Assembly (NCBI GenBank): GCA_028688375.1 | Contig: JAQTYG010000001.1 | Span: forward strand, 7,793 to 71,792 | Direction: 5' to 3' | Source: Patescibacteria group bacterium | Lineage (GTDB): Bacteria; Patescibacteriota; Patescibacteriia; Magasanikbacterales; GWA2-37-8 | Length of the DNA stretch: 64,000 bases | In this document: in pieces, positions 18,952 to 64,000 of the stretch | Layout of the letters: every line of letters begins with the position of its first letter | Numbering within the stretch: position 1 is the first letter of the stretch | The notes under the pieces: generated by a model | Database searches by the model: none | What the model saw: the letters and a program-made list of their open reading frames with translations, nothing else | What the model was told of the DNA's origin: nothing | Program-made: the position numbers and the translations under genes

Positions 18952-18983
18952 AATACAAAAACACACCAGACTTATCCACACCC

Positions 18984-21466: not shown

Positions 21467-24240
21467 TGTTTGAGAAAAAACCGCCGTTAGATATTTTGGC
21501 CTGCCCGTCATGTAAAGCGACCGGTTTGATTGGCTTTAAAAAATGCGCGCACTGCCACGGCATGTCTATGGGGCTGTCTCGGCGCGGGCAATGGCAATTC
21601 TGGTCTTATCCGTTGACGCGTTATAATCTGGCTTTACTGAACGGCCGGAGAATTTTTAATAAAATTCGACGCATCACCGCGGTGGTGCTTTGGCTTAATT
21701 GCTGGGTCTGGGCCGGATTGTTTATTTACCAAACCGGTGCTTACAAAGAATTTTTATTTGGTCCGAGCGCCTGGTTGCCGGCGCTGGCCAATTTGAGCGC
21801 CACCATTCAAATTTTATTTTGGCTGGGCGTAATTACCCTGTGTTATTTTTGGTACCGAACGATTACGGAGAAAAAAGCCCAAGGCGCGGTGGAAAAATAT
21901 GATTACGATAAAAAATCCGCCGACGAATCCACAGCCGGTAAAACTTACAGTTGGGGTGAGGCGCTAAAATTGCCGCGTCATAAAAAACGCGCCATTGATT
22001 CCACTTTTACCGACGAGGCGATGGCGGCGCTGGCCGAAGCCTATGGTTTCGCCGATAAAAATAATTACCCCACGCTTGACGCTTACCATTTATTTTACGC
22101 CCTGCTGGCTTTCAATCGCATCAGCAATGTTTTTATCCGGCTCGGTTTGCCGGCCAAATCGATTCGCGACAATATTTTTCAAATGATGGCCAAGCCGGCG
22201 AAATCGACGGCGCAGAATCGGGCGAGCATGCCCTTGTTGTCTCCGGATTTACAGCAGATACTTTTTCAGGCCTATGAAGAGGCCTATCAAGCGCACCAAG
22301 ATTATGTCAGCGTCACCGAATTATTGGTGGCGGTGGTGGCGCAGTCGCCGGAGATTCAGGAATTTTTATATGACCTGGAAGTGGACAAGCGCAAACTGGC
22401 GAACGCCGTGGAATGGGCGCGCATCCGCGAACGCCTTTATCGGCAATATATAAAATACAGCCGGGCCTCATCGCACCGTTCCAAAAAAGGCATGGATAAA
22501 GCCATGACCGCGCTGGCGACGCCGTATCTGAATGCTTTCAGTGAAGATTTGACGCTCTACGCTCAACTCGGGCGATTGGATTTCGCCGTGGCTCGCGATC
22601 GGGAAATGGAAGAACTTTTTAGAATCGTGGAAGGCGGCGGGCAAAACGTTATTTTAGTCGGCGTTCGCGGCGTGGGCAAGCGTAGTATCGTGGAAGGCCT
22701 GGCCGAGAGAATGGCGGCCGATGATGTCCCCAAACGTTTGCAGGATAAACGCTTGGTGCGTTTGAGCGTTTCCGCTTTGTTGTCCGGCACCACTCCGACC
22801 GGCGCCATTGAAAGATTGCGCAATATTTTGTCCGAAGTCAGGCGAGCGCGCAACGTTATTTTATTTATCCACAACATCCATGAATTAATCGGCGTCTCGG
22901 CCGGCGCCGGCAGTAGTTTGGACGTGGCCGACACTTTGGCCGAACAATTGAGCGGTGGAGAGGCTCTGACCATCGCCACCACGGCGACGGATGAATACGC
23001 CCGCCACATCGCCGGGTCTTCTTTGTCCGGCGTGTTTACCAAACTTGACGTTAAAGAAATGGAAGAGGACCAGGCCATTCAAGCGGTGGAATCAAGGATC
23101 GGCGCGTTGGAATACAAACACCAGGTTTTCTTTTCTTATGACGCGGTGGAAAAAGCGGTGCAGATGGCTGCGCGTTTTACTCACGAAAATTGTTTGCCGG
23201 GCAGCGCTTTGGCCATTGTCAGCGAAGCCGCCGCTTACGCGCGAAATAAAAAAGGCGCCGACTCGCTGGTCAGCGCCGAAGAAATTGCCCAGGTGGTGTC
23301 CGACAAAACCGGCATCCCGACCACGGCGATTGGCGCCGACGAATCCGGCAAACTGCTTAAGCTGGAAGAAGCCATGCACCAACGGGTGATCGGCCAGGAT
23401 GAAGCCGTGGATTTAGTGGCCAACGCTTTGCGCCGCGCGCGAGTGGAAATTCGCTCTAAAGCCAAACCGATCGCCAACTTTTTATTCCTTGGCCCGACCG
23501 GCGTCGGCAAAACCGAACTAGCCAAAACCATCGCCGCGGTGTATTTTGGCGGAGAAGAAAAAATGGTGCGCCTGGACATGAGCGAATATCAGGACAAATC
23601 CGGCATTTACCGCCTAATCGGCGCGCCCGGAGAAAAAGGCACCGGCATTTTAACCGAAGCCATCCGCCAGCACCCGTTCACTCTGTTACTGTTGGATGAA
23701 ATAGAAAAAGCCGACCCGGATATTTTAAATATTTTCTTGCAAGTAATGGACGACGGTCGTTTAACCGACAGCGCCGGCCGAGTAGTTGATTTTACTAATG
23801 CCATTATTATCGCCACTTCCAATGCGGGCACTTCTTACGTGCAGGAACAATTGCACGCCGGCCTTTCCACCGAAGCGATCAAAGAACGATTGTTACATGG
23901 TGAATTAAAACAATATTTCCGGCCGGAATTTTTAAATCGTTTTGACGGCATTGTTTTGTTCAAGCCGCTCGCTTTGGCAGACATTAAAAAAATCGCCAAG
24001 CTAATGCTGAAGCGCGTGGCCGCCGACTTGGATGCCAAAGGCATCGAGCTGGTAATTGGCGAAGCCGCTCTGGACTTTTTGGCCCAAGCCGGATATGATC
24101 CGGACTTTGGCGCCCGCCCGATGCGGCGCGTTTTGCAGGAGAGAGTGGAAAACCAGTTGGCGGAAATGTTATTGTCCGGCACGCTCAAACGCCGCGATAA
24201 AGTAATGGTCGGCGGCAATGGGGAATTAAGCGTAATTTAA
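21463..24240 (+). CDS. membrane-anchored Clp-family AAA+ ATPase (ClpB/ClpC-like) with N-terminal zinc ribbon, TM helices, Clp_N repeats and a degenerate NBD1
   Basis: CPSCKATG...CAHCHG zinc ribbon, then hydrophobic helices and Clp_N-like repeats. NBD1 has GVRGVGKRS, a Walker A lacking T/S. NBD2 is intact with GPTGVGKTELAK and a ClpB_D2-small domain. Confidence 0.65.
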   Translation: MMFEKKPPLDILACPSCKATGLIGFKKCAHCHGMSMGLSRRGQWQFWSYPLTRYNLALLNGRRIFNKIRRITAVVLWLNCWVWAGLFIYQTGAYKEFLFGPSAWLPALANLSATIQILFWLGVITLCYFWYRTITEKKAQGAVEKYDYDKKSADESTAGKTYSWGEALKLPRHKKRAIDSTFTDEAMAALAEAYGFADKNNYPTLDAYHLFYALLAFNRISNVFIRLGLPAKSIRDNIFQMMAKPAKSTAQNRASMPLLSPDLQQILFQAYEEAYQAHQDYVSVTELLVAVVAQSPEIQEFLYDLEVDKRKLANAVEWARIRERLYRQYIKYSRASSHRSKKGMDKAMTALATPYLNAFSEDLTLYAQLGRLDFAVARDREMEELFRIVEGGGQNVILVGVRGVGKRSIVEGLAERMAADDVPKRLQDKRLVRLSVSALLSGTTPTGAIERLRNILSEVRRARNVILFIHNIHELIGVSAGAGSSLDVADTLAEQLSGGEALTIATTATDEYARHIAGSSLSGVFTKLDVKEMEEDQAIQAVESRIGALEYKHQVFFSYDAVEKAVQMAARFTHENCLPGSALAIVSEAAAYARNKKGADSLVSAEEIAQVVSDKTGIPTTAIGADESGKLLKLEEAMHQRVIGQDEAVDLVANALRRARVEIRSKAKPIANFLFLGPTGVGKTELAKTIAAVYFGGEEKMVRLDMSEYQDKSGIYRLIGAPGEKGTGILTEAIRQHPFTLLLLDEIEKADPDILNIFLQVMDDGRLTDSAGRVVDFTNAIIIATSNAGTSYVQEQLHAGLSTEAIKERLLHGELKQYFRPEFLNRFDGIVLFKPLALADIKKIAKLMLKRVAADLDAKGIELVIGEAALDFLAQAGYDPDFGARPMRRVLQERVENQLAEMLLSGTLKRRDKVMVGGNGELSVI

Positions 24241-53483: not shown

Positions 53484-53741
53484 TCATTTTTTTATACAAT
53501 TTTTTATTCGTTCTTTTAATTTCACTAACGCTTGCGCGTGTTTCTTTAATTGCCACTCTCTTTCTTTGGCATCATATTCCGACGCGTATGCTTCATAATA
53601 TATCAGATCAAAAGGTTTTTTGTGTTTAGTATATTCACTTTCTCCAGCGTTGTGTTCGGCAAATCGTTTGCGTAAATCTCCGGTATAACCAACGTAAGTG
53701 CTTTTGTCTACTTTGCTCTGTAGCACATAAACATAATACAT
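53484..53741 (-). CDS. GIY-YIG nuclease-domain small protein (UPF0213-like)
   Basis: YYVYVLQS...YVGYTGDLRKRFAEHN GIY-YIG motif. 85 aa. Confidence 0.65.
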   Translation of the reverse strand: MYYVYVLQSKVDKSTYVGYTGDLRKRFAEHNAGESEYTKHKKPFDLIYYEAYASEYDAKEREWQLKKHAQALVKLKERIKNCIKK

Positions 53742-53841: not shown

Positions 53842-54468
53842 GTGGATAAAACCGTAATTTTTAATGTATTCGCCCCTATGTTAGACAAAAAACATTTTTC
53901 CGCCATCCGCGCCATTTTGCTCAATTACGCCGAGAAAAGACGCGAGATTATCAAGTTAGCGGGGGACGCCCAACAACGCGCTAAAAAGGCCATTTTTGCC
54001 CTTCAGCGCGATGATAAACAGGGCGCCGAGGAGCAATTCCGGGAATCTCTGGCCCGACTGAAAGAGACCGGGGCAGTAGCCAGTTCCGACGAGCGTTTGA
54101 CCGGCGAGGGTTCTTATCGCGCCGCGCTGGAAGAGTACGTGGAAGCCATACTTTTCAACCAGTGTTTGTCCGGTGAAAAAATCGGCGCCATCGCCGACCT
54201 GAACATCGACCCCGACATTTACATCGGCGGTTTATGCGACGTACCCGGCGAGCTCTATCGCTACGCCATCAAATCAGCCACCGAGAAAAAATTTGACCGG
54301 GTCAAAGAATGTTACCAAATCGCCGAAGAAATCATCACCGAATTGGTGGATATGGATTTAACCGGCTACAACCGCCAAAAATTTGATCAAGCCAAACAGG
54401 CCCTGCAAAAATTAGAGCAGGTCGTGTACGAAGTGAGCATGAAAAGACAGAATTCAATAGATCAATAA
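53842..54468 (+). CDS. translin-family protein (GTG start)
   Basis: All-helical, with DIYIGGLCDVPGELYRYAI resembling the translin YLxGxADLTGELMRLAI motif. GTG start 11 nt after GAGGAGG. Confidence 0.45.
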   Translation: MDKTVIFNVFAPMLDKKHFSAIRAILLNYAEKRREIIKLAGDAQQRAKKAIFALQRDDKQGAEEQFRESLARLKETGAVASSDERLTGEGSYRAALEEYVEAILFNQCLSGEKIGAIADLNIDPDIYIGGLCDVPGELYRYAIKSATEKKFDRVKECYQIAEEIITELVDMDLTGYNRQKFDQAKQALQKLEQVVYEVSMKRQNSIDQ

Positions 54469-56440: not shown

Positions 56441-56494
56441 GTCATCCCGACCGAAGTGGAGGGATCCCTTCGGCGATAAATTATCGGGGATCCA
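56441..56494. repeat. GTCATCCCGACCGAAGTGGAGGGATCCCTTCGG family repeat
   Basis: Near-identical to 58057-58094. Confidence 0.7.
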
Positions 56495-57972: not shown

Positions 57973-58043
57973 GCGGGATTAGTACAGTGGTAGTATGCTT
58001 GCTTCCCAAGCAAGAGATGCGAGTTCGATTCTCGTATCCCGCT
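57973..58043 (+). tRNA. tRNA-Gly (anticodon CCC)
   Basis: GCGGGATTAGTACAGTGGTAGTATGCTTGCTTCCCAAGCAAG...GAGTTCGATTCTCGTATCCCGCT. Confidence 0.8.
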
Positions 58044-58056
58044 CACATCATTTTTG

Positions 58057-58094
58057 TCATCCCGACCGAAGTGGAGGGATCCCTCCGGCACCCA
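58057..58094. repeat. GTCATCCCGACCGAAGTGGAGGGATCCCTCCGGCACCC family repeat right after tRNA-Gly
   Basis: Shares the GGATCCCTCCGGCACCC tail with 60092-60110. Confidence 0.7.
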
Positions 58095-58107
58095 TCTTTT
58101 ACCAATT

Positions 58108-59493
58108 ATGTACAAATTTGCCAAGAAGAAAAAAACCAAAAAATACGCCGGCCGGCCGGTCAAAGAAGACGCCGGCCGTTTTAATAACCTCGTTATCAAC
58201 GACGAGTGGCGCGCCGTGTTAGACGCGCTGGAAAACAGCCCGGAAAATATTTTCGTCACCGGACGGGCCGGCACCGGCAAGTCCACTCTGCTGGATTATT
58301 GGCGCGCGCAAACCAAACAAAGCATCGTCGTCCTCGCGCCGACCGGCGTGGCCGCCCTCAACGTCCGCGGTCAAACCATTCATTCGTTTTTCAGTTTTCA
58401 CCCGGGCATTACGCCGAATGATATCCATCGCCGAGGCACCAAAGCCGGCGCGGAAAATATGTATAAAAAAATCGACGCCATTGTGATTGACGAGGTCTCC
58501 ATGGTCCGCGCCGACTTGCTTGATTGCGTGGACAAATTTATGCGCCTCAACGGACGGGAACGCGGACGGGCGTTCGGCGGCGCGCGCCTGGTCGTGTTCG
58601 GCGACATGTGCCAGCTCCCGCCGGTCATCACCAACACGGAGCACGAAGCATTTTTTTCTTTGTATCAAACACCGTATTTTTTCTCGGCCAATGTTTTTCG
58701 CACCCGCCAGCTGGTCGGTCCGTCCAATGATTTCGTTAAATTTGAACTGAACGAAGTCCACCGGCAGAAAGACGCCAATTTTATCCGCTTGCTCAACCGC
58801 GTGCGCGACAATGAAGTTACGGCCGAAGATTTGGCCGAGCTCAACCAACGCCACGACCAAAATTTTCAAATCAGCGACGACGACTTCCGCATTTATCTCA
58901 CGGCGACCAATCAGGCGGCGGCGGAAATAAACAGCGCGCGTCTCAGTCGTTTGCCCGGTCAAGCGCAAGCGTTCAAAGCCGAGGCCTACGGTCATTTTGA
59001 CGAACGCGTTCATCCGACCGACGAAATATTACAACTCAAAGTCGGCGCCCAGGTGATGCTGATAAACAATGACGCGGACAAGCGCTGGGTTAACGGCAGT
59101 ATCGGACGCGTGGTGGAATGTAAAAAAAATAATTACGGCCTGCCCAACGTAAAAGTGAAATTAGCCGATGGGGCAGTGGTGGAGGTGGAACAGCACACCT
59201 GGAAAGCGCACCGCTACCATTTTAACGTCTCGCAACAAAAAATTGAAGCCGAAGAAATCGGCGCCTTCACGCAACTGCCTCTCAAACTCGCTTGGGCGGT
59301 GACGATTCACAAAGCGCAAGGTAAAACTTTTGACCGCGTCGTGCTGGATGTCGGCCGAGGTATGTTCGCCTCCGGCCAATTGTACGTCGCCCTGTCGCGC
59401 TGTACTTCGCTCGAGGGCATTGTCCTCATCCAACCGCTTCTGCCCCGCGACGTCATCACCGACCCGGTCATCTCCGAATTCCTGCGAGGATAA
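58108..59493 (+). CDS. Pif1/RecD-family 5'-3' DNA helicase
   Basis: Walker A GRAGTGKSTLL, IVIDEVSM, and C-terminal TIHKAQGKTFDRV and LYVALSRC. Confidence 0.75.
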   Translation: MYKFAKKKKTKKYAGRPVKEDAGRFNNLVINDEWRAVLDALENSPENIFVTGRAGTGKSTLLDYWRAQTKQSIVVLAPTGVAALNVRGQTIHSFFSFHPGITPNDIHRRGTKAGAENMYKKIDAIVIDEVSMVRADLLDCVDKFMRLNGRERGRAFGGARLVVFGDMCQLPPVITNTEHEAFFSLYQTPYFFSANVFRTRQLVGPSNDFVKFELNEVHRQKDANFIRLLNRVRDNEVTAEDLAELNQRHDQNFQISDDDFRIYLTATNQAAAEINSARLSRLPGQAQAFKAEAYGHFDERVHPTDEILQLKVGAQVMLINNDADKRWVNGSIGRVVECKKNNYGLPNVKVKLADGAVVEVEQHTWKAHRYHFNVSQQKIEAEEIGAFTQLPLKLAWAVTIHKAQGKTFDRVVLDVGRGMFASGQLYVALSRCTSLEGIVLIQPLLPRDVITDPVISEFLRG

Positions 59494-59570
59494 TCTTAGC
59501 CCTCCCTCTCCTTACCAAGGAGAGCCCGCCTGCCGGCGAGGCAGGGGCTGGGATGAGGTCCGCCTTAAAA

Positions 59571-59606
59571 CAAAAACCCCCCGGCTTTCGCCGAAGGGTT
59601 TTTTGA
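59571..59606. terminator. bidirectional rho-independent terminator (Pif1 gene / csp)
   Basis: CCGGCTTTCGCCGG-type stem with a GAAA loop, flanked by A-runs and T-runs on both strands. Confidence 0.65.
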
Positions 59607-59616
59607 TGTCTAGATA

Positions 59617-59820
59617 TTAGACGCGCTTCACGTGGATAGCGCGCGGGCCTTTGTCCGATTGCTCGGTCTCAAAGGTCACGGCATCGCCTTCGCGTAATTC
59701 GTCGAAGGTAACGCCTTCAAGGGCGGTGGAGTGGAAGAAAAGATCCTTCCCGTCAGTAGCGCCTTCAGGGGCGATAAAGCCAAAACCCTTATCTGTCAAT
59801 CTTTGAATTTTTCCGTTCAT
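59617..59820 (-). CDS. cold-shock protein (CspA family)
   Basis: MNGKIQRLTDKGFGFI...FFH RNP1/RNP2 motifs. 68 aa starting from the internal ATG. Confidence 0.85.
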   Translation of the reverse strand: MNGKIQRLTDKGFGFIAPEGATDGKDLFFHSTALEGVTFDELREGDAVTFETEQSDKGPRAIHVKRV

Positions 59821-59906
59821 AGATGTGATAAGTGAATAAATCTGCAAAGTGGCCTCTGCAGAAATTCGACTAGTTTCTACGTGAGAAGCGTACTTTATAG
59901 ATGAAT

Positions 59907-59935
59907 AGTATAGCATAAAATGGGGATTTTGTCAA
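59907..59935 (-). promoter_or_regulatory. consensus sigma-70 promoter of csp with ~85-nt structured 5' UTR
   Basis: On the minus strand: TTGACA, 17-nt spacer, TATACT. The leader contains a TCTGCA...TGCAGA hairpin. Confidence 0.6.
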
Positions 59936-60010
59936 TAGGGTGCCCGAATCAAGAGCAAAAACAAGCTTTTTGACTATACACAGCTAAAAGCGGTATAATC
60001 TCTTTAGTTT

Positions 60011-60144
60011 CTCCCCCTCTTATAAAGAGGGGGACTAAGGGGGAGTCCTGTCATCCTCGTCACCTGTCATTCTGAACGGAGCGTAGCGCAGTGAAGAATC
60101 CCTCCGGCACCCGTCACCTGTCATTCCCGACCCGATCGGGAATC
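60011..60144. repeat. cluster of repeats: CCCCCTCTT-ATAA-AGAGGGGG hairpin plus two GTCATT family copies
   Basis: GTCATTCTGAACGGAGCGTAGCGCAGTGAAGAATCCC and GTCATTCCCGACCCGATCGGGAATCC. Confidence 0.65.
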
Positions 60145-60164
60145 CATCCCCATAATATTATTAT

Positions 60165-61151
60165 ATGCCCGAAACAAATAGAGATGTTGACCCGGAAATT
60201 CTCGCCCGAGTCCTGAGAGACCAGGCGGTGCGTAAAATAAGAGTAAAACCGCCCGCGCATTGGATCGGCCAAGAACCAAATTTCGGTCCGGAAACCAGAA
60301 AGCCCCCGGAATTTTATGGCGACCATCTGGCCGAAATGATGCGCCAAATAGCCGAGCAGATAAACAAAGACGTGCTGGCGGAATACGGCCTGGCGGATTT
60401 TTTGAATTCCGACAACTCGCTCAACATGAACGGCTATGCCGACGGTCCGCATACGGCGGAAAAAGTGCGGGCGGATGAAGCCAGCGTTTTTGCCTCGGAT
60501 TTGAATTTTTCCGGCGCGCGCAGTAAAGACACGCAGGAAGAATACGGCGTGAACACGCCGGAGGCAGTCGTCCCGCTTTATCGCGAACGAAAAAAATTAC
60601 AAAAAAATTACCAAATGGAAATGGCCGTCACCGCCTTGCTCCACAAAATTTTAGGCGGAGATTATTTGGTGGTGCGCGCCTCGGCGCTCGATGACTACAA
60701 TAACGGCGTGGATAACATTATTATCAACAAACAAACCGGCGAAGTGATCTGCGCTTTTGACGAAGTGCACGAGAGTGGGACTGGCGAACGCACTGAGAAG
60801 AAAAATCAAAAAATAAAAACGCTGGCTGTCCGAGGCGGGGCCAAAGTCCGTTACGGCATCAAAATGGAAAAAGGCAAGCTCCAACGCGCGTCAATGTCCA
60901 ACGTGCCGGTGTTTTATCTGGGCTTGAGCAGTAAAGAGCTGGAAAATTTACTTGATAACATGAATTTTGATTTGGACGGGGAAATCCAACCCAAGGAATA
61001 CGAAACCTTCGCCCAATTGGTCGCCTCGCTCAAAGAACAACTCGCTGTTTTGAATGGAATGAAAAACGTTCATTTCGCCGTGTTCAACAAATTAAAAACC
61101 TTCGGCGCTTTGCTGGATGACTTTGAGGCGAAGGGAAAGAATCCGGCGTAA
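60165..61151 (+). CDS. hypothetical protein (328 aa, no recognisable domain)
   Basis: Intact ORF flanked by repeats. Acidic and helical. Confidence 0.4.
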   Translation: MPETNRDVDPEILARVLRDQAVRKIRVKPPAHWIGQEPNFGPETRKPPEFYGDHLAEMMRQIAEQINKDVLAEYGLADFLNSDNSLNMNGYADGPHTAEKVRADEASVFASDLNFSGARSKDTQEEYGVNTPEAVVPLYRERKKLQKNYQMEMAVTALLHKILGGDYLVVRASALDDYNNGVDNIIINKQTGEVICAFDEVHESGTGERTEKKNQKIKTLAVRGGAKVRYGIKMEKGKLQRASMSNVPVFYLGLSSKELENLLDNMNFDLDGEIQPKEYETFAQLVASLKEQLAVLNGMKNVHFAVFNKLKTFGALLDDFEAKGKNPA

Positions 61152-61154
61152 ATT

Positions 61155-61199
61155 TGTCATTCCCACACCTCCTTGTCATTCCCGCGTAGGCGGGAATCC
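61155..61199. repeat. tandem TGTCATTCCC / TGTCATTCCCGCGTAGGCGGGAATCC family repeat
   Basis: Perfect CCCGC-GTAG-GCGGG hairpin core. Confidence 0.7.
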
Positions 61200-61258
61200 A
61201 ACGGCACCGTGAGGCAAAGACAAATCCACAAAAAACATTTTTTCATTAACCCAATTCT

Positions 61259-61753
61259 ATGTCAAAAAAACGCCTGGCCATCATCTTCGTTTGCGTCGTA
61301 GTCGCGGTGGTAGTGTTCCTGTATTTCTGGCCGAGACCAATAGCCAAAGATTATCTGGCCAATTCTGTCACCGTACACGGAGTCTTTGATTTTGATTGCG
61401 CGCAAGACGATGATTGCTATATTGTTCGCAACGATATCGGACTGGATTGTCGCGATTATGACTGCGGGGTGGGGGAGGGCTGTTTTGACTCCAATGATCC
61501 CGACTACTTAAGCATCAACTTCAAAAAATACTCCCAAAAATTAAAAGAATTGTGCGACACCCCGGAACGCTTGGCCGATATGCAAGCCCGCCCGGAGGAA
61601 TATGGCTGTACTCTCGGCTTGGCTTATTGCCCTGATAGCGACACCAGCTATCGCCCGGCCTGCCGTGAAGGCAAATGCGTCAAAGTTAAAAGCCCTGCCC
61701 CATCCGACGCCTATTTCGCTGACCAGTTTTATCGCGCGGTGATTAAGGAGTAG
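61259..61753 (+). CDS. membrane-anchored cysteine-rich protein (13 Cys), hypothetical
   Basis: N-terminal TM segment followed by a Cys-rich ectodomain (DCAQDDDCY...CRDYDCGVGEGC). Confidence 0.4.
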   Translation: MSKKRLAIIFVCVVVAVVVFLYFWPRPIAKDYLANSVTVHGVFDFDCAQDDDCYIVRNDIGLDCRDYDCGVGEGCFDSNDPDYLSINFKKYSQKLKELCDTPERLADMQARPEEYGCTLGLAYCPDSDTSYRPACREGKCVKVKSPAPSDAYFADQFYRAVIKE

Positions 61754-61787
61754 GGTGGCGTAAATTTTATTATAACAACTATAATTT

Positions 61788-62438
61788 ATGAAACTTAAGG
61801 AGGTTCCCATGGTCGATAGACCGCGGGAAAAGTTAACTAAATACGGCGTAAACAAATTGAGCGACACCGAACTCATGGCGATTTTAATCCGCACCGGCAT
61901 AAAAGGCAAAAACGTCGTGGAGCTTTCAAAACAAATTCTGAAGATTATCGAAAAGAACGGCGTGGATAAAATTACGATGGATGATTTGACGAACGTCAAA
62001 GGTCTGGGTAAAACAAAAGCTGGCCAGATTCTCGCCAGTGTTGAACTGGGTCGGCGGTTGTTAAAAGGCAAAAAATCCGAGCTTATCCTGTCCGCGCAAG
62101 ACGTTTGGAATAAAATGGAGGACTTACGCGATAGCAAAAAAGAACATTTTGTCATTTTTTATCTGGATACGCAAAATCAGATAATTGAAAGAGAAATAAT
62201 TTCCGTCGGTACGTTGAACGAAAGCCTGATTCATCCGCGAGAAGTTTTTGAACCGGCCATTGCTCATTCGGCGGCCCAAGTCATCGTTGCACACAATCAT
62301 CCGTCCGGAAATCTGAAGTCTTCGCCTGAAGATATCGCTGTGACCAAGCGTCTAACCGAAGCAGGAACCCTGCTCGGAATAGAGATCCTGGACCATGTAA
62401 TCGTTTCCAGGAGTGGGTTTAAAAGTTTGAATAAATGA
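61788..62438 (+). CDS. radC: RadC-like JAB/MPN domain protein
   Basis: HNHPSG JAMM motif, upstream E, and HhH N-terminus. Confidence 0.8.
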   Translation: MKLKEVPMVDRPREKLTKYGVNKLSDTELMAILIRTGIKGKNVVELSKQILKIIEKNGVDKITMDDLTNVKGLGKTKAGQILASVELGRRLLKGKKSELILSAQDVWNKMEDLRDSKKEHFVIFYLDTQNQIIEREIISVGTLNESLIHPREVFEPAIAHSAAQVIVAHNHPSGNLKSSPEDIAVTKRLTEAGTLLGIEILDHVIVSRSGFKSLNK

Positions 62439-62451
62439 GTACCCGTTAATT

Positions 62452-63072
62452 ATGCCCAACCATTATACTGAAAAATTAAAAATAGCCTTAAAAAAACGCG
62501 TTTTCATATATATTGACGCGGCTAACTTGGAACGCTCGGTGCAAGACATGTGGGTCAGTCCAAAGGACGTTCCGGATGATCTAAAAAAGTTTACAGCCGA
62601 TCAATTACGATATCGTATTGATTATCAAAAATTCAAGGAATATTTTAAGAGCTTGGCCGATGTGCGAGAAGTTAAGTTTTATTCCGCTGATTTTTGTAAC
62701 GAACAGCATGGTAAATTTTTATGGTTTCTCAAAAAGGTACTTAATTTTAAGTTAGAAACTAAGCCGCTTAAAGAATATCTTGACCATACTCCGGAGGCAC
62801 CTCACCGCAAAGCGAATTTTGATGTTGAATTGTCAGTTGACGCTACTTACAAATTAAACGAATATGATACTTTAATTTTGTTTTCAGGCGATTGCGATTT
62901 TGAATACCTCATCAAATTTTTAAAAGGCCATGGCAAGGTAGTTATTGTTTTTTCTCGTGTTGGCCATGTTGCGAAAGAGCTGCCGCCAGCCAGCAGTTAC
63001 TATTTCGATTTAATCGACTTCAGGAACGAATTATTAAAAATCGAAGAAAAAAAGCAAAAAATCCCGCTTTAG
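62452..63072 (+). CDS. NYN-domain (LabA-like PIN-fold) putative RNase
   Basis: VFIYIDAANL...LILFSGDCDFEYLIKFL acidic-residue pattern of NYN/LabA. Confidence 0.6.
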   Translation: MPNHYTEKLKIALKKRVFIYIDAANLERSVQDMWVSPKDVPDDLKKFTADQLRYRIDYQKFKEYFKSLADVREVKFYSADFCNEQHGKFLWFLKKVLNFKLETKPLKEYLDHTPEAPHRKANFDVELSVDATYKLNEYDTLILFSGDCDFEYLIKFLKGHGKVVIVFSRVGHVAKELPPASSYYFDLIDFRNELLKIEEKKQKIPL

Positions 63073-63080
63073 GCGGGATT
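63057..63080 (+). terminator. hairpin at the NYN gene end (weak terminator)
   Basis: AATCCCGC-TTTA-GGCGGGATT; no clear T-tract. Confidence 0.3.
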
Positions 63081-63200
63081 CTGCAGTTGATTTCAAGTGA
63101 TACTGCTATCACCTGTATTTCCATTATACACATTACATACAATTTTGTCAAGGTTATCCACAGGTGGGACGTAATTAAAAAATGGCGATTTTATCTCAAT

Positions 63201-63229
63201 TTGCATTAATTTTTTGGCTAAGATATAAT
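63201..63229 (+). promoter_or_regulatory. consensus sigma-70 promoter of hsdM
   Basis: TTGCAT, 17-nt spacer, TATAAT. Confidence 0.55.
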
Positions 63230-63255
63230 AAAAATACGATAAATCTTATTTAATT

Positions 63256-64000
63256 ATGCCTATTCAAACCGAGACAAACAACAGCGCGGATTTCGAAAAG
63301 ATGCTCTTCCGCGCCGCTGACAAACTTCGCAAAAATATTGATGCCGCCGAATACAAACACGTGGTGCTCGGCCTTATTTTTTTGAAATTTATCTCTGATT
63401 CTTTTGAAGAATTGCACGCTAAATTAGTGAGCGGCGATGGTGATTACACCGGCGCCAATCCTGAAGACAAGGATGAATATTTAGCCGAGAGCGTGTTTTT
63501 CGTTCCGCCAAATGCCCGTTGGTCTTACATCCAAACCAGAGCCAAATTGCCAAGCATTGGCGAGGATTTGGACATGGCCATGGATTTAATAGAAAAAGAC
63601 AATCCGAGCTTGCGCGGAATCTTGCCAAAAGTTTACGCTCGGCCAAATTTGGATAAAATGTCTTTGGGCGGTTTGATAGACATGATCAACAACACGGCCC
63701 TTAAACAAGAAAACGAAAAAAGCAAAGATTTGTTTGGTCGTGTATATGAATATTTTCTTGGTGAGTTTGCCAATGCCGAAGGCAAAAAAGGCGGACAATT
63801 TTATACGCCAAAATCCATCGTTAGATTGATGGTGGAAATGATTGAGCCGTACAAAGGCCGGGTTTATGATCCGTGTTGCGGTTCAGGCGGCATGTTTGTC
63901 ATGAGTGAAAAATTCGTGGAAGAACACCGCGGCCGTCGTGATGACATCTCTGTTTACGGACAAGAATCAAATCAAACAACTTGGCGTTTGTGCAGAATGA
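63256..64000 (+). CDS. hsdM: type I restriction-modification methyltransferase subunit HsdM (3' truncated by window end)
   Basis: HsdM N-domain, then N6_Mtase motif [11 protein letters not shown]. Confidence 0.8.

Follow-up and report, generated by a model that had tools for sequence, protein, structure and literature searches.

Positions 57973-64000 of the window, a 64,000-nucleotide stretch of contig JAQTYG010000001.1 from a Magasanikbacterales (Patescibacteria) genome, run from a tRNA-Gly(CCC) gene through genes for a Pif1-family helicase, a cold-shock protein (csp), a 328-amino-acid (328-aa) protein, a 164-aa cysteine-rich protein, RadC and a predicted NYN-domain RNase to the type I restriction-modification methyltransferase gene hsdM. 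While a first-pass annotation had read this set as a defence island or an element integrated at the tRNA gene, our analysis makes it likely that the region is a mosaic of chromosomal DNA, consisting of an inherited cluster, a rearrangement at tRNA-Gly and an exchange slot, and not one element inserted at the tRNA. As a genome feature it is an ordinary mosaic of inherited genes and a hot spot of a known kind; its added interest lies in a small RNA associated with the NYN gene and in the large, uncharacterised family of the 328-aa protein.

The evidence comes first of all from gene order. Using homologues of the 328-aa protein and the helicase we found contigs of six other genomes (L027, L028/29, L030/31, L034, L035 and L036/37), with which the proteins of the window were compared by tblastn. 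Helicase orthologues of 72-88% identity are present in L027, L028, L030, L034, L035 and L036, and csp is found at the same position and on the opposite strand, with 79-94% identity. The 328-aa protein follows in the same order and orientation, at 54-60% identity, in five of the genomes (L027, L028/29, L030/31, L034 and L036/37), L035 having the helicase and csp only. In L036 a RadC gene (79%) stands directly after the 328-aa orthologue, and RadC therefore belongs to the conserved arrangement. The identities of the block match those of the flanking housekeeping genes, which range from 38 to 88% between the window and the L023/L027 organism, and this fits vertical descent. Neither a tRNA gene nor an integrase gene was found at the block in any of the six loci. 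At the level of gene order and identity, these comparisons show the helicase, csp and 328-aa genes to be a vertically inherited cluster of a Magasanikbacteria-like lineage, of which, judging by L036, RadC is very likely also a part. The element integrated at a tRNA that the first-pass annotation had proposed is not supported, given the helicase-csp-328 order kept in relatives and no integrase (57973-64000) or attR (window) being found; that annotation had itself named conserved gene order without attR and integrase as the result that would argue for a stable core region, and such conservation is seen for the helicase, csp and 328-aa genes in the other genomes, and as far as RadC in L036.

The features of the region, with strand, are:
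57973-58044, +: tRNA-Gly(CCC) (ARAGORN; Rfam tRNA, 68.8 bits)
58056-58096, +: one copy of a genome-wide palindromic repeat (GTCATCCCGACCGAAGTGGAGGGATCCCTCCGGCACCC), filling the junction between tRNA block and helicase block (pattern search)
58108-59493, +: Pif1-family SF1B helicase, 461 aa (PF05970, 2e-29; PHROG Dda-like helicase, 9e-83)
59617-59817, -: csp, cold-shock protein, 66 aa (CSD, 4e-17; promoter 59935-59907)
59970-59999, +: promoter ahead of the 328-aa gene (promoter search)
60007-60145, +: repeat cluster where the 5' leader of the 328-aa mRNA is predicted (a second-type palindrome and three GTCATYCY units)
60165-61151, +: 328-aa protein gene (large uncharacterised Patescibacteria family)
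61156-61199, +: two repeat units, the last ones in the window (pattern search)
61259-61753, +: 164-aa Cys-rich protein gene (N-terminal hydrophobic segment resembling a membrane anchor)
61788-62438, +: full-length RadC, with UPF0758 N-terminal domain and JAB domain (PRK00024 equivalog, Pfam)
62452-63072, +: NYN (LabA-like) predicted RNase, 206 aa (PF01936, 2.6e-19, 70.6 bits)
63044-63120, -: candidate small structured RNA, ~75 nt (folding, covariation, covariance model)
63123-63162, -: small RNA promoter (TTGACA-17-TATAAT, 12/12) with abutting DnaA-box-like 9-mer
63200-63229, +: hsdM promoter (TTTGCA-18-TATAAT, 10/12)
63256-64000, +: hsdM, type I restriction-modification methyltransferase, N-terminal 248 aa (PADLOC MTase_I, 1e-95)

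In all six loci the left neighbour of the helicase is a divergent S24/LexA gene, followed by a gene for a Y-family polymerase (IMS, dinB-like). The gap between lexA and helicase holds the palindrome GTGAACAnnTGTTCAC (GAAC-N4-GTTC, of the LexA-box type) in L030 (5219-5234), L034 (8941-8956), L035 (6278-6293) and L036/37 (2603-2618 in L036), which suggests that the helicase of these relatives would belong to an SOS-type regulon. The 64-kb window contains neither the palindrome nor lexA nor the Y-family polymerase gene. Since in the relatives lexA and the polymerase gene adjoin the cluster and a LexA operator precedes the helicase, the cluster may serve DNA-damage or replication-stress functions.

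On the other side of the junction, tRNA-Gly(CCC) closes a housekeeping block whose gene order agrees with that of relatives, and domain matches bear out the first-pass naming of its upstream genes (Mur ligase, DivIC/FtsB-like, PpiC rotamase). Three metagenome contigs obtained with a PpiC scan, from relatives distant enough for PpiC identity to be 47-54%, keep in whole or in part the series tRNA-Lys, GIY-YIG, translin-like, Mur ligase, small protein, FtsB-like, PpiC and tRNA-Gly(CCC). The step from PpiC to tRNA-Gly(CCC) is kept in L023, L025 and L026, and because each continues differently past the tRNA, the tRNA marks a synteny break. On the cluster side, similarity between window and relatives starts only a few bases ahead of the helicase ATG. 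The gap of 63 nt from tRNA to ATG is almost wholly one copy of the palindromic repeat, whose 27-nt core is identical to a copy at 56441-56467, and the equivalent place in the relatives is occupied by the LexA operator. Judging from this pattern of similarity, a rearrangement breakpoint, rather than an attachment site, is the best reading of the tRNA-Gly/helicase junction, whichever side moved.

Two further observations concern the left side. At 41137-46087, ~13 kb left of the helicase, is a set of three genes, for an HlyD-like adaptor, an ABC ATPase and an FtsX permease, and such a set (36-59% identity) lies 6-7 kb left of the helicase in two relatives (L027, 1-1850; L034, 1-2359). If the ABC-FtsX genes are orthologous, the 13-kb housekeeping block ending in tRNA-Gly would have replaced the lexA/polymerase segment; their orthology is uncertain, paralogous ABC-FtsX sets exist, and we did not rely on the trio as a second conserved flank. 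In addition, 53842-54468 (+) encodes a 208-aa protein matching the Translin family (PF01997, 6e-19), and relatives keep this gene next to that of the Mur ligase at 62-73% identity. Translin proteins are known mainly from eukaryotes and archaea.

At the right end of the region the picture changes from conservation to exchange. The 446-aa HsdM of the sibling contig L001, identical (100%) to that of the window wherever the two overlap, carries the domains HsdM_N and N6_Mtase, and the methyltransferases that occupy this position in relatives have only 25-45% identity to the HsdM of the window. In an alignment with L036, similarity persists past the end of RadC or NYN, across the small RNA and its promoter and up to the -10 region of hsdM, and is lost inside the methyltransferase genes; L036 continues after RadC with the small RNA, an unrelated HsdM (~25% identical to that of the window) and an AAA_15/21 ATPase. 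Following RadC-NYN, L004 encodes an HD protein, a NucS/YhcG-type PDDEXK nuclease, HsdM and an SMC-like ATPase, and L005 an EcoRI methylase, PIN_8, GmrSD and a Schlafen/AlbA_2 protein. After the 328-aa gene come NERD proteins in L027 and L028, an N4/N6 methyltransferase, a PLD-SNF2 protein and an Eco57I-type enzyme in L030, and DUF3800, NERD and an MmeI-type enzyme in L034. Different nuclease, restriction-modification or defence genes at a fixed flank bear the mark of cassette exchange at a fixed chromosomal site, in which hsdM is the exchangeable and truly accessory part, so that the accessory DNA is the last ~800 bases of the window and what follows. The two marks of a defence hot spot are thus present, namely a recognised defence gene (hsdM) and differing defence genes at a conserved flank in relatives, and Patescibacteria gain a definite site at which restriction-modification genes are exchanged behind a promoter that is conserved.

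The label of defence island accordingly holds for the far end only, where each relative carries different defence genes; the rest is the conserved block. The hidden Markov model searches for defence systems that the first-pass annotation had called for recognised hsdM as the sole system gene, the remaining matches being at the level of domains: those of the helicase (PDC-S68, RecD-like), csp (CSD_V) and NYN (LabA-like, 5e-9) were not counted as named systems. The type I system is itself seen through hsdM alone, as the window ends inside this gene and hsdS and hsdR would lie beyond. Just beyond the window, a repeat copy (GTCATTCCCGCGAAGGCGGGAATCC; L001 2340-2364, ~64570-64594) lies at about codon 437 of hsdM at the end of the sibling contig, and a 45%-identical HsdM homologue runs 80 residues past this point; hsdM may be interrupted or altered by insertion of the repeat.

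Taken together, these comparisons suggest the following history. The inherited cluster of helicase, csp, 328-aa gene and, very probably, RadC would have been joined by rearrangement to the housekeeping block ending in tRNA-Gly, with a breakpoint probably within ~60 nt of the helicase start codon, at a place now occupied by a short palindromic repeat of the kind that litters intergenic DNA. The rare gene for the Cys-rich membrane protein sits as a small insert between the 328-aa gene and RadC. Beyond the small RNA promoter begins the slot in which defence genes are swapped between lineages, the swap being seen directly in the relatives and its mechanism probably being homologous recombination in the conserved flank. 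The type I system now in the slot would act as usual, HsdM/HsdS methylating the cell's own DNA and HsdR cleaving unmodified DNA.

Base composition permits a different division, in which RadC, NYN, the small RNA and hsdM are one recently transferred low-GC block and only the helicase, csp and 328-aa gene are resident. The GC content and third-position GC content (GC3) of the helicase, csp, 328-aa and Cys-rich genes are typical of the window (z +1.6 to 0; GC3 +1.5 to +0.1), GC3 drops from RadC onward (z -1.5, -3.7 and -1.8 for RadC, NYN and hsdM), and no resident repeats are found after 61199. Moreover, L004 and L005, with 33-42% GC at these loci, carry RadC, NYN and the small RNA side by side (76-81% identity). 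However, L036 carries RadC (79%) right after the 328-aa orthologue, a junction that differs from the one here only by the Cys-rich insert, and then the small RNA and an unrelated HsdM; by this order RadC and the small RNA are resident, the swap point lying beyond them. We also rejected low GC as proof of transfer, since a demonstrably syntenic gene is lower still: the GIY-YIG gene at 53484-53741 (-; 85 aa, GC 0.345) has a GC3 z of -5.2, yet is syntenic at 76% identity in a relative. Low GC is therefore not diagnostic here, and this gene is a warning against taking composition as a sign of foreign DNA in the genome at hand. We consider transfer of the four as one block unlikely.

Less probable again is that the whole cluster (lexA-like repressor, Y-family polymerase, helicase, csp, 328-aa gene and cargo) is an old mobile element or prophage remnant, inherited within the clade and able to relocate. 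Such an origin would explain the different left neighbour in this genome, and mobile elements commonly carry cassettes of S24 and Y-family polymerase, Dda-like helicases (PHROG, 9e-83), Bro-N/RhuM and variable cargo of restriction-modification genes. Against such an origin, no gene for an integrase, relaxase, capsid or terminase is seen in any of six loci of 10-20 kb, the identities run parallel to those of housekeeping genes, and the left flank past the polymerase gene is ordinary chromosomal DNA, with the ABC-FtsX pair recurring in L027 and L034.

Finally, a classical island integrated by a recombinase into tRNA-Gly(CCC), extending from the helicase through the restriction-modification genes and having its integrase and attR beyond the window, is very improbable: the tRNA gene, which forms one border as expected for such an island, does sit exactly where synteny with relatives ends, restriction-modification and nuclease genes are present and the far end lies outside the window, but the helicase, csp, 328-aa protein and RadC have syntenic orthologues elsewhere, away from any tRNA, no integrase lies beside the tRNA and no attR in the 6 kb, composition is typical at 58.1-61.75 kb, and resident repeats occupy the intergenic gaps. 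The searches behind this statement (Pfam, NCBIfam, PADLOC and PHROG) returned no integrase or recombinase domain in any open reading frame of 57973-64000, and no second copy of the tRNA-Gly 3' end (GAGTTCGATTCTCGTATCCCGCT) was found in the 64-kb window with up to 3 mismatches, the far border being outside it.

Four points weigh against the mosaic that we favour. The window stops inside hsdM, leaving the far border unseen, and an integrase or attR beyond 64000 is possible. The closest relative available has 88% helicase identity, and the timing and direction of the rearrangement are inferred rather than observed. The low GC3 of RadC, NYN and hsdM may be a sign that the first two came in together with hsdM. 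Some relatives' clusters have a flavour of mobile elements, with an S24 repressor and Y-family polymerase and, in L028, Bro-N and RhuM genes. Nevertheless, the mosaic remains the likely reading, and it carries a lesson: a tRNA beside helicase, nuclease and restriction-modification genes mimics a mobile island, whereas relatives show mostly inherited genes joined by rearrangement, which calls for caution in island calling in the small, repeat-rich genomes of uncultured bacteria.

The conserved flank of the exchange slot contains a candidate gene that the first-pass annotation had not listed. That annotation had placed hsdM behind a consensus promoter; hsdM is indeed there, but the perfect 12/12 promoter (63151-63123) is on the minus strand, pointing away from hsdM and toward the NYN end, and the promoter of hsdM itself matches at 10/12 positions. 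Downstream of the perfect promoter is the predicted small RNA, laid out as a 9-bp hairpin with a GNAG loop, the linker AUCAACUGCRG, a terminator hairpin and a U-run, and folding with a minimum free energy of -26.8 kcal/mol (z -5.5). The RNA and NYN converge, the modelled 3' part of the RNA (63044-63072) lying within the coding sequence of NYN. The overlap with the NYN 3' end recurs in 19/19 genomes, comprising the window and 18 species representatives (L004-L021) returned by a NYN scan, with the aligned 79-nt stretch reaching 27-59 nt into the coding sequence; as the loci were chosen through NYN, the 19/19 count does not measure how often the RNA occurs without NYN. The 18 representatives bear the labels Magasanikbacteria, Uhrbacteria, Saccharibacteria, Peribacteria and Paceibacterota, and the protein genes around the element vary among them.

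The predicted structure is supported by covariation. In the alignment of the 19 sequences, compensatory changes are seen at 16/21 predicted pairs and standard pairs fill 96.7% of cells, compared with 82.5% in column shuffles (0/500 reaching the observed value) and 36-46% with slid partners. These controls lean toward structure, because the 19 sequences share ancestry and this very alignment also served to predict the pairs, although the slid controls and the count of double changes still stand clear. Comparison of the strands gave 96.7% canonical pairs with 59 G-U pairs for the minus strand, and 83.4% with 59 A-C mismatches for the plus strand, an asymmetry on which we rejected the hairpins as a + strand 3' structure of the NYN mRNA. 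A covariance model scores the window copy at 83.9 bits and finds one copy per NYN locus, at 60-84 bits; it also finds a copy in L036 (7186-7263, 76.5 bits) that was not in the building set and lies directly after RadC, with no NYN. A promoter TTGAC[AT]-N16-18-TAnnnT is present at a fixed distance in 15/20 small RNA loci, and a DnaA-box-like 9-mer (TTATCCACA, + strand, 63154-63162) abuts the -35 of the small RNA and recurs with at most one mismatch in 11/20 loci. No Rfam family reached its gathering score (best RsmY, 19.7 bits versus 57, E 0.16), the RNA core pattern had no match in viral contigs, and we found no description of a NYN-associated small RNA in these bacteria in the literature.

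As far as gene arrangement goes, these results show NYN and the convergent, 3'-overlapping candidate RNA to be a two-gene module, together in all 19 genomes. NYN always being accompanied by the RNA, and the RNA once occurring without NYN, would be consistent with the RNA holding a potentially harmful RNase in check; it is equally possible that the small RNA is a housekeeping RNA processed by NYN. The importance of the finding is that a strongly covarying small RNA outside Rfam is tied to a conserved NYN nuclease, and that the pair is directly testable for expression, toxicity and RNA-dependent control.

The protein partner is unusually well conserved, having 55-81% identity across classes in the 18 species representatives, and its acidic motifs (IDAANLE, NFDVE..VD and SGDCDF) are intact. 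No phage match was found in searches of mobile elements, and the plasmid matches are only ~27% identical. We also rejected NYN as a consistent defence-island gene, as it mostly has housekeeping neighbours in the 18 genomes and restriction-modification genes make up a minority of them. RadC orthologues (76-79%) are found directly before NYN in L004 and L005, the RadC-NYN pair being 76-81% identical, and the upstream side of the pair in L005 is the ribosomal protein-rpoA cluster. From its predicted domains, the RadC of the window is a full-length protein of the housekeeping type, not a mobile-element fragment.

The second subject of interest is the 328-aa protein. Both it and the 164-aa protein lack any match in Pfam, NCBIfam, PADLOC and PHROG, so that the description of the former as having no recognisable domain stands. 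The two had been called orphans, which suits the rare 164-aa protein but not the 328-aa protein: a word-indexed search gave 50 relatives, all from Patescibacteria where source names are given, and a profile search of 1.84 billion representatives at 50% identity gave 838 cluster representatives, 524 of them at E <= 1e-30. Nearly all of the listed members are ~300 aa long, and E152, R171, D176, D177, D183, F198, D199 and K213 are invariant in the family alignment. An AlphaFold2 model built with 48 sequences (pLDDT 90.4, pTM 0.82) has a helical N-terminal half followed by an alpha/beta core. The sequence profile gave nothing meaningful against PDB sequences, nor did Foldseek give a match at E <= 0.001 in PDB and BFVD; the best, non-significant PDB matches of the model are restriction-endonuclease folds (Nt.BspD6I, E 0.12; BstEII, 0.2; 3ijm). 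The secondary-structure order of the model is helix(E)-strand-strand(D)-strand(DE)-helix(K), and in L032, a distant relative with a 40%-identical homologue, a Y-family polymerase gene is again nearby. Because of the element order in the model, the linkage to the Pif1 helicase and to lexA/dinB-type genes in close relatives, and the polymerase near the L032 homologue, we tentatively suggest that the 328-aa protein may be a divergent PD-(D/E)xK-type nuclease acting on damaged DNA, which is a reasonable hypothesis and not a result. In either case, a large, fold-confident protein family of unknown function is placed in a conserved neighbourhood of Pif1 helicase and SOS-type genes.

A bolder combination of these ideas is possible, though we think it rather doubtful as a whole. 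NYN and the RNA would be an undescribed two-component module across several Patescibacteria classes, in which the RNA would control or neutralise the predicted NYN RNase, as an RNA antitoxin or regulator of a new kind of toxin, and which would mark the fixed border of a restriction-modification exchange site; separately, the 328-aa family would be a new restriction-endonuclease-like DNA-damage protein partnered with the Pif1 helicase.

Every gene that the first-pass annotation had named in the region was confirmed in its place. The Pif1-like helicase matches PF05970 at 103.2 bits (cutoff 25.9) and falls below the RecD2 equivalog level (75.9 bits versus a cutoff of 500). Its start is most likely ATG 58108, a correction that gives the 461 aa of the orthologues, as TTG 58054 would traverse the repeat copy. 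On the opposite strand csp is, as had been noted, strongly promoted (TTGACA-17-TATACT with extended -10, 11/12 matches). The RadC-like JAB protein (PRK00024, 230 bits versus a cutoff of 180, with both Pfam domains) and the NYN-domain nuclease (PF01936, 70.6 bits) are likewise as predicted. The 164-aa protein does have the hydrophobic N-terminal segment of a membrane-anchored protein, but 11 cysteines and not 13. It has a single known homologue, of 63% identity in an unrelated context, and no such gene separates the 328-aa gene from RadC in L036; by this comparison it looks like a small lineage-specific insert.

The repeats that had been expected in every intergenic gap occupy part of the region. 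Units of the GTCATYCY...GRATCC family have 8 pattern matches in the window, versus 0.07 expected, and a looser core gives nine units; the six within 58056-61199 are all intergenic. Three gaps (tRNA-helicase, csp-328 and 328-164) are filled by units of this family, that between helicase and csp has different palindromes, and none of the units is found in the three remaining gaps after 61199. The family is common to L004, L005, L007, L027 and L028, the last having two copies in its lexA-helicase gap. A second, G+C-rich palindrome type, distinct from the GTCATYCY family, was observed in the helicase-csp gap (59498-59560, CCCTCTCCTTACCAAGGAGAG) and the csp-328 gap (60007-60045, CTCCCCCTCTTATAAAGAGGGGGA). 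As for the DnaA-box 9-mer, it has 4 exact matches in the window (63154-63162, 40826-40834, 18972-18980 and 22865-22873), versus ~0.5 expected from length alone, and 32 with one mismatch, versus 11.6 in shuffles. In several cases it abuts the -35 of a strong promoter, in either orientation: those of the small RNA, the gene at 41137 and, in relatives (L028, L030, L034, L035 and L036), lexA. The 9-mer may be a promoter-associated regulatory site in these bacteria.

Several known systems offer themselves for comparison. Like tRNA-targeted integrative islands with an integrase and attL/attR, the region has a tRNA gene at a synteny break; unlike them, it has no integrase or attR in its visible part, and its supposed cargo is syntenic in relatives away from tRNA. 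The intergenic repeats resemble REP/BIME, Correia and RS3-type repeats in being imperfect palindromes of 25-45 nt, intergenic only, clustered and present in several related genomes, and differ in being of the GTCATYCY...GRATCC family, with no associated transposase and with one copy at about codon 437 of the sibling-contig hsdM. With SOS cassettes (lexA, a dinB/umuC-type polymerase and a helicase with a LexA box) the relatives share a helicase divergent from lexA, GAAC-N4-GTTC between the two and a Y-family polymerase beside lexA; unlike such cassettes, the locus and 64-kb window of this genome are without the lexA/polymerase half and the operator, and LexA regulation is putative.

Defence islands are restriction-modification or defence hot spots flanked by conserved core genes. 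The region is similar in having a fixed flank (RadC, NYN and small RNA, or the 328-aa gene) followed by different defence genes in each genome. It is unlike them in that one recognised defence gene is visible and the right border unseen, that the flank includes a small RNA gene, and that the swap point is apparently at the promoter or start of hsdM. The NYN module, in turn, recalls type I toxin-antitoxin pairs with convergent, 3'-overlapping antisense RNAs, of which txpA/RatA and bsrG/SR4 of Bacillus subtilis are examples. Those toxins are small, hydrophobic membrane peptides, whereas NYN is a predicted soluble, RNase-like enzyme of 206 aa, and its module lies mostly among housekeeping genes. 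Similar to txpA/RatA and bsrG/SR4, however, the candidate RNA is small and structured, has its own promoter and terminator, and is convergent with and complementary to the 3' end of the mRNA, and, as in type I systems, the protein gene is never seen without the RNA (19/19), while the RNA is once seen without NYN.

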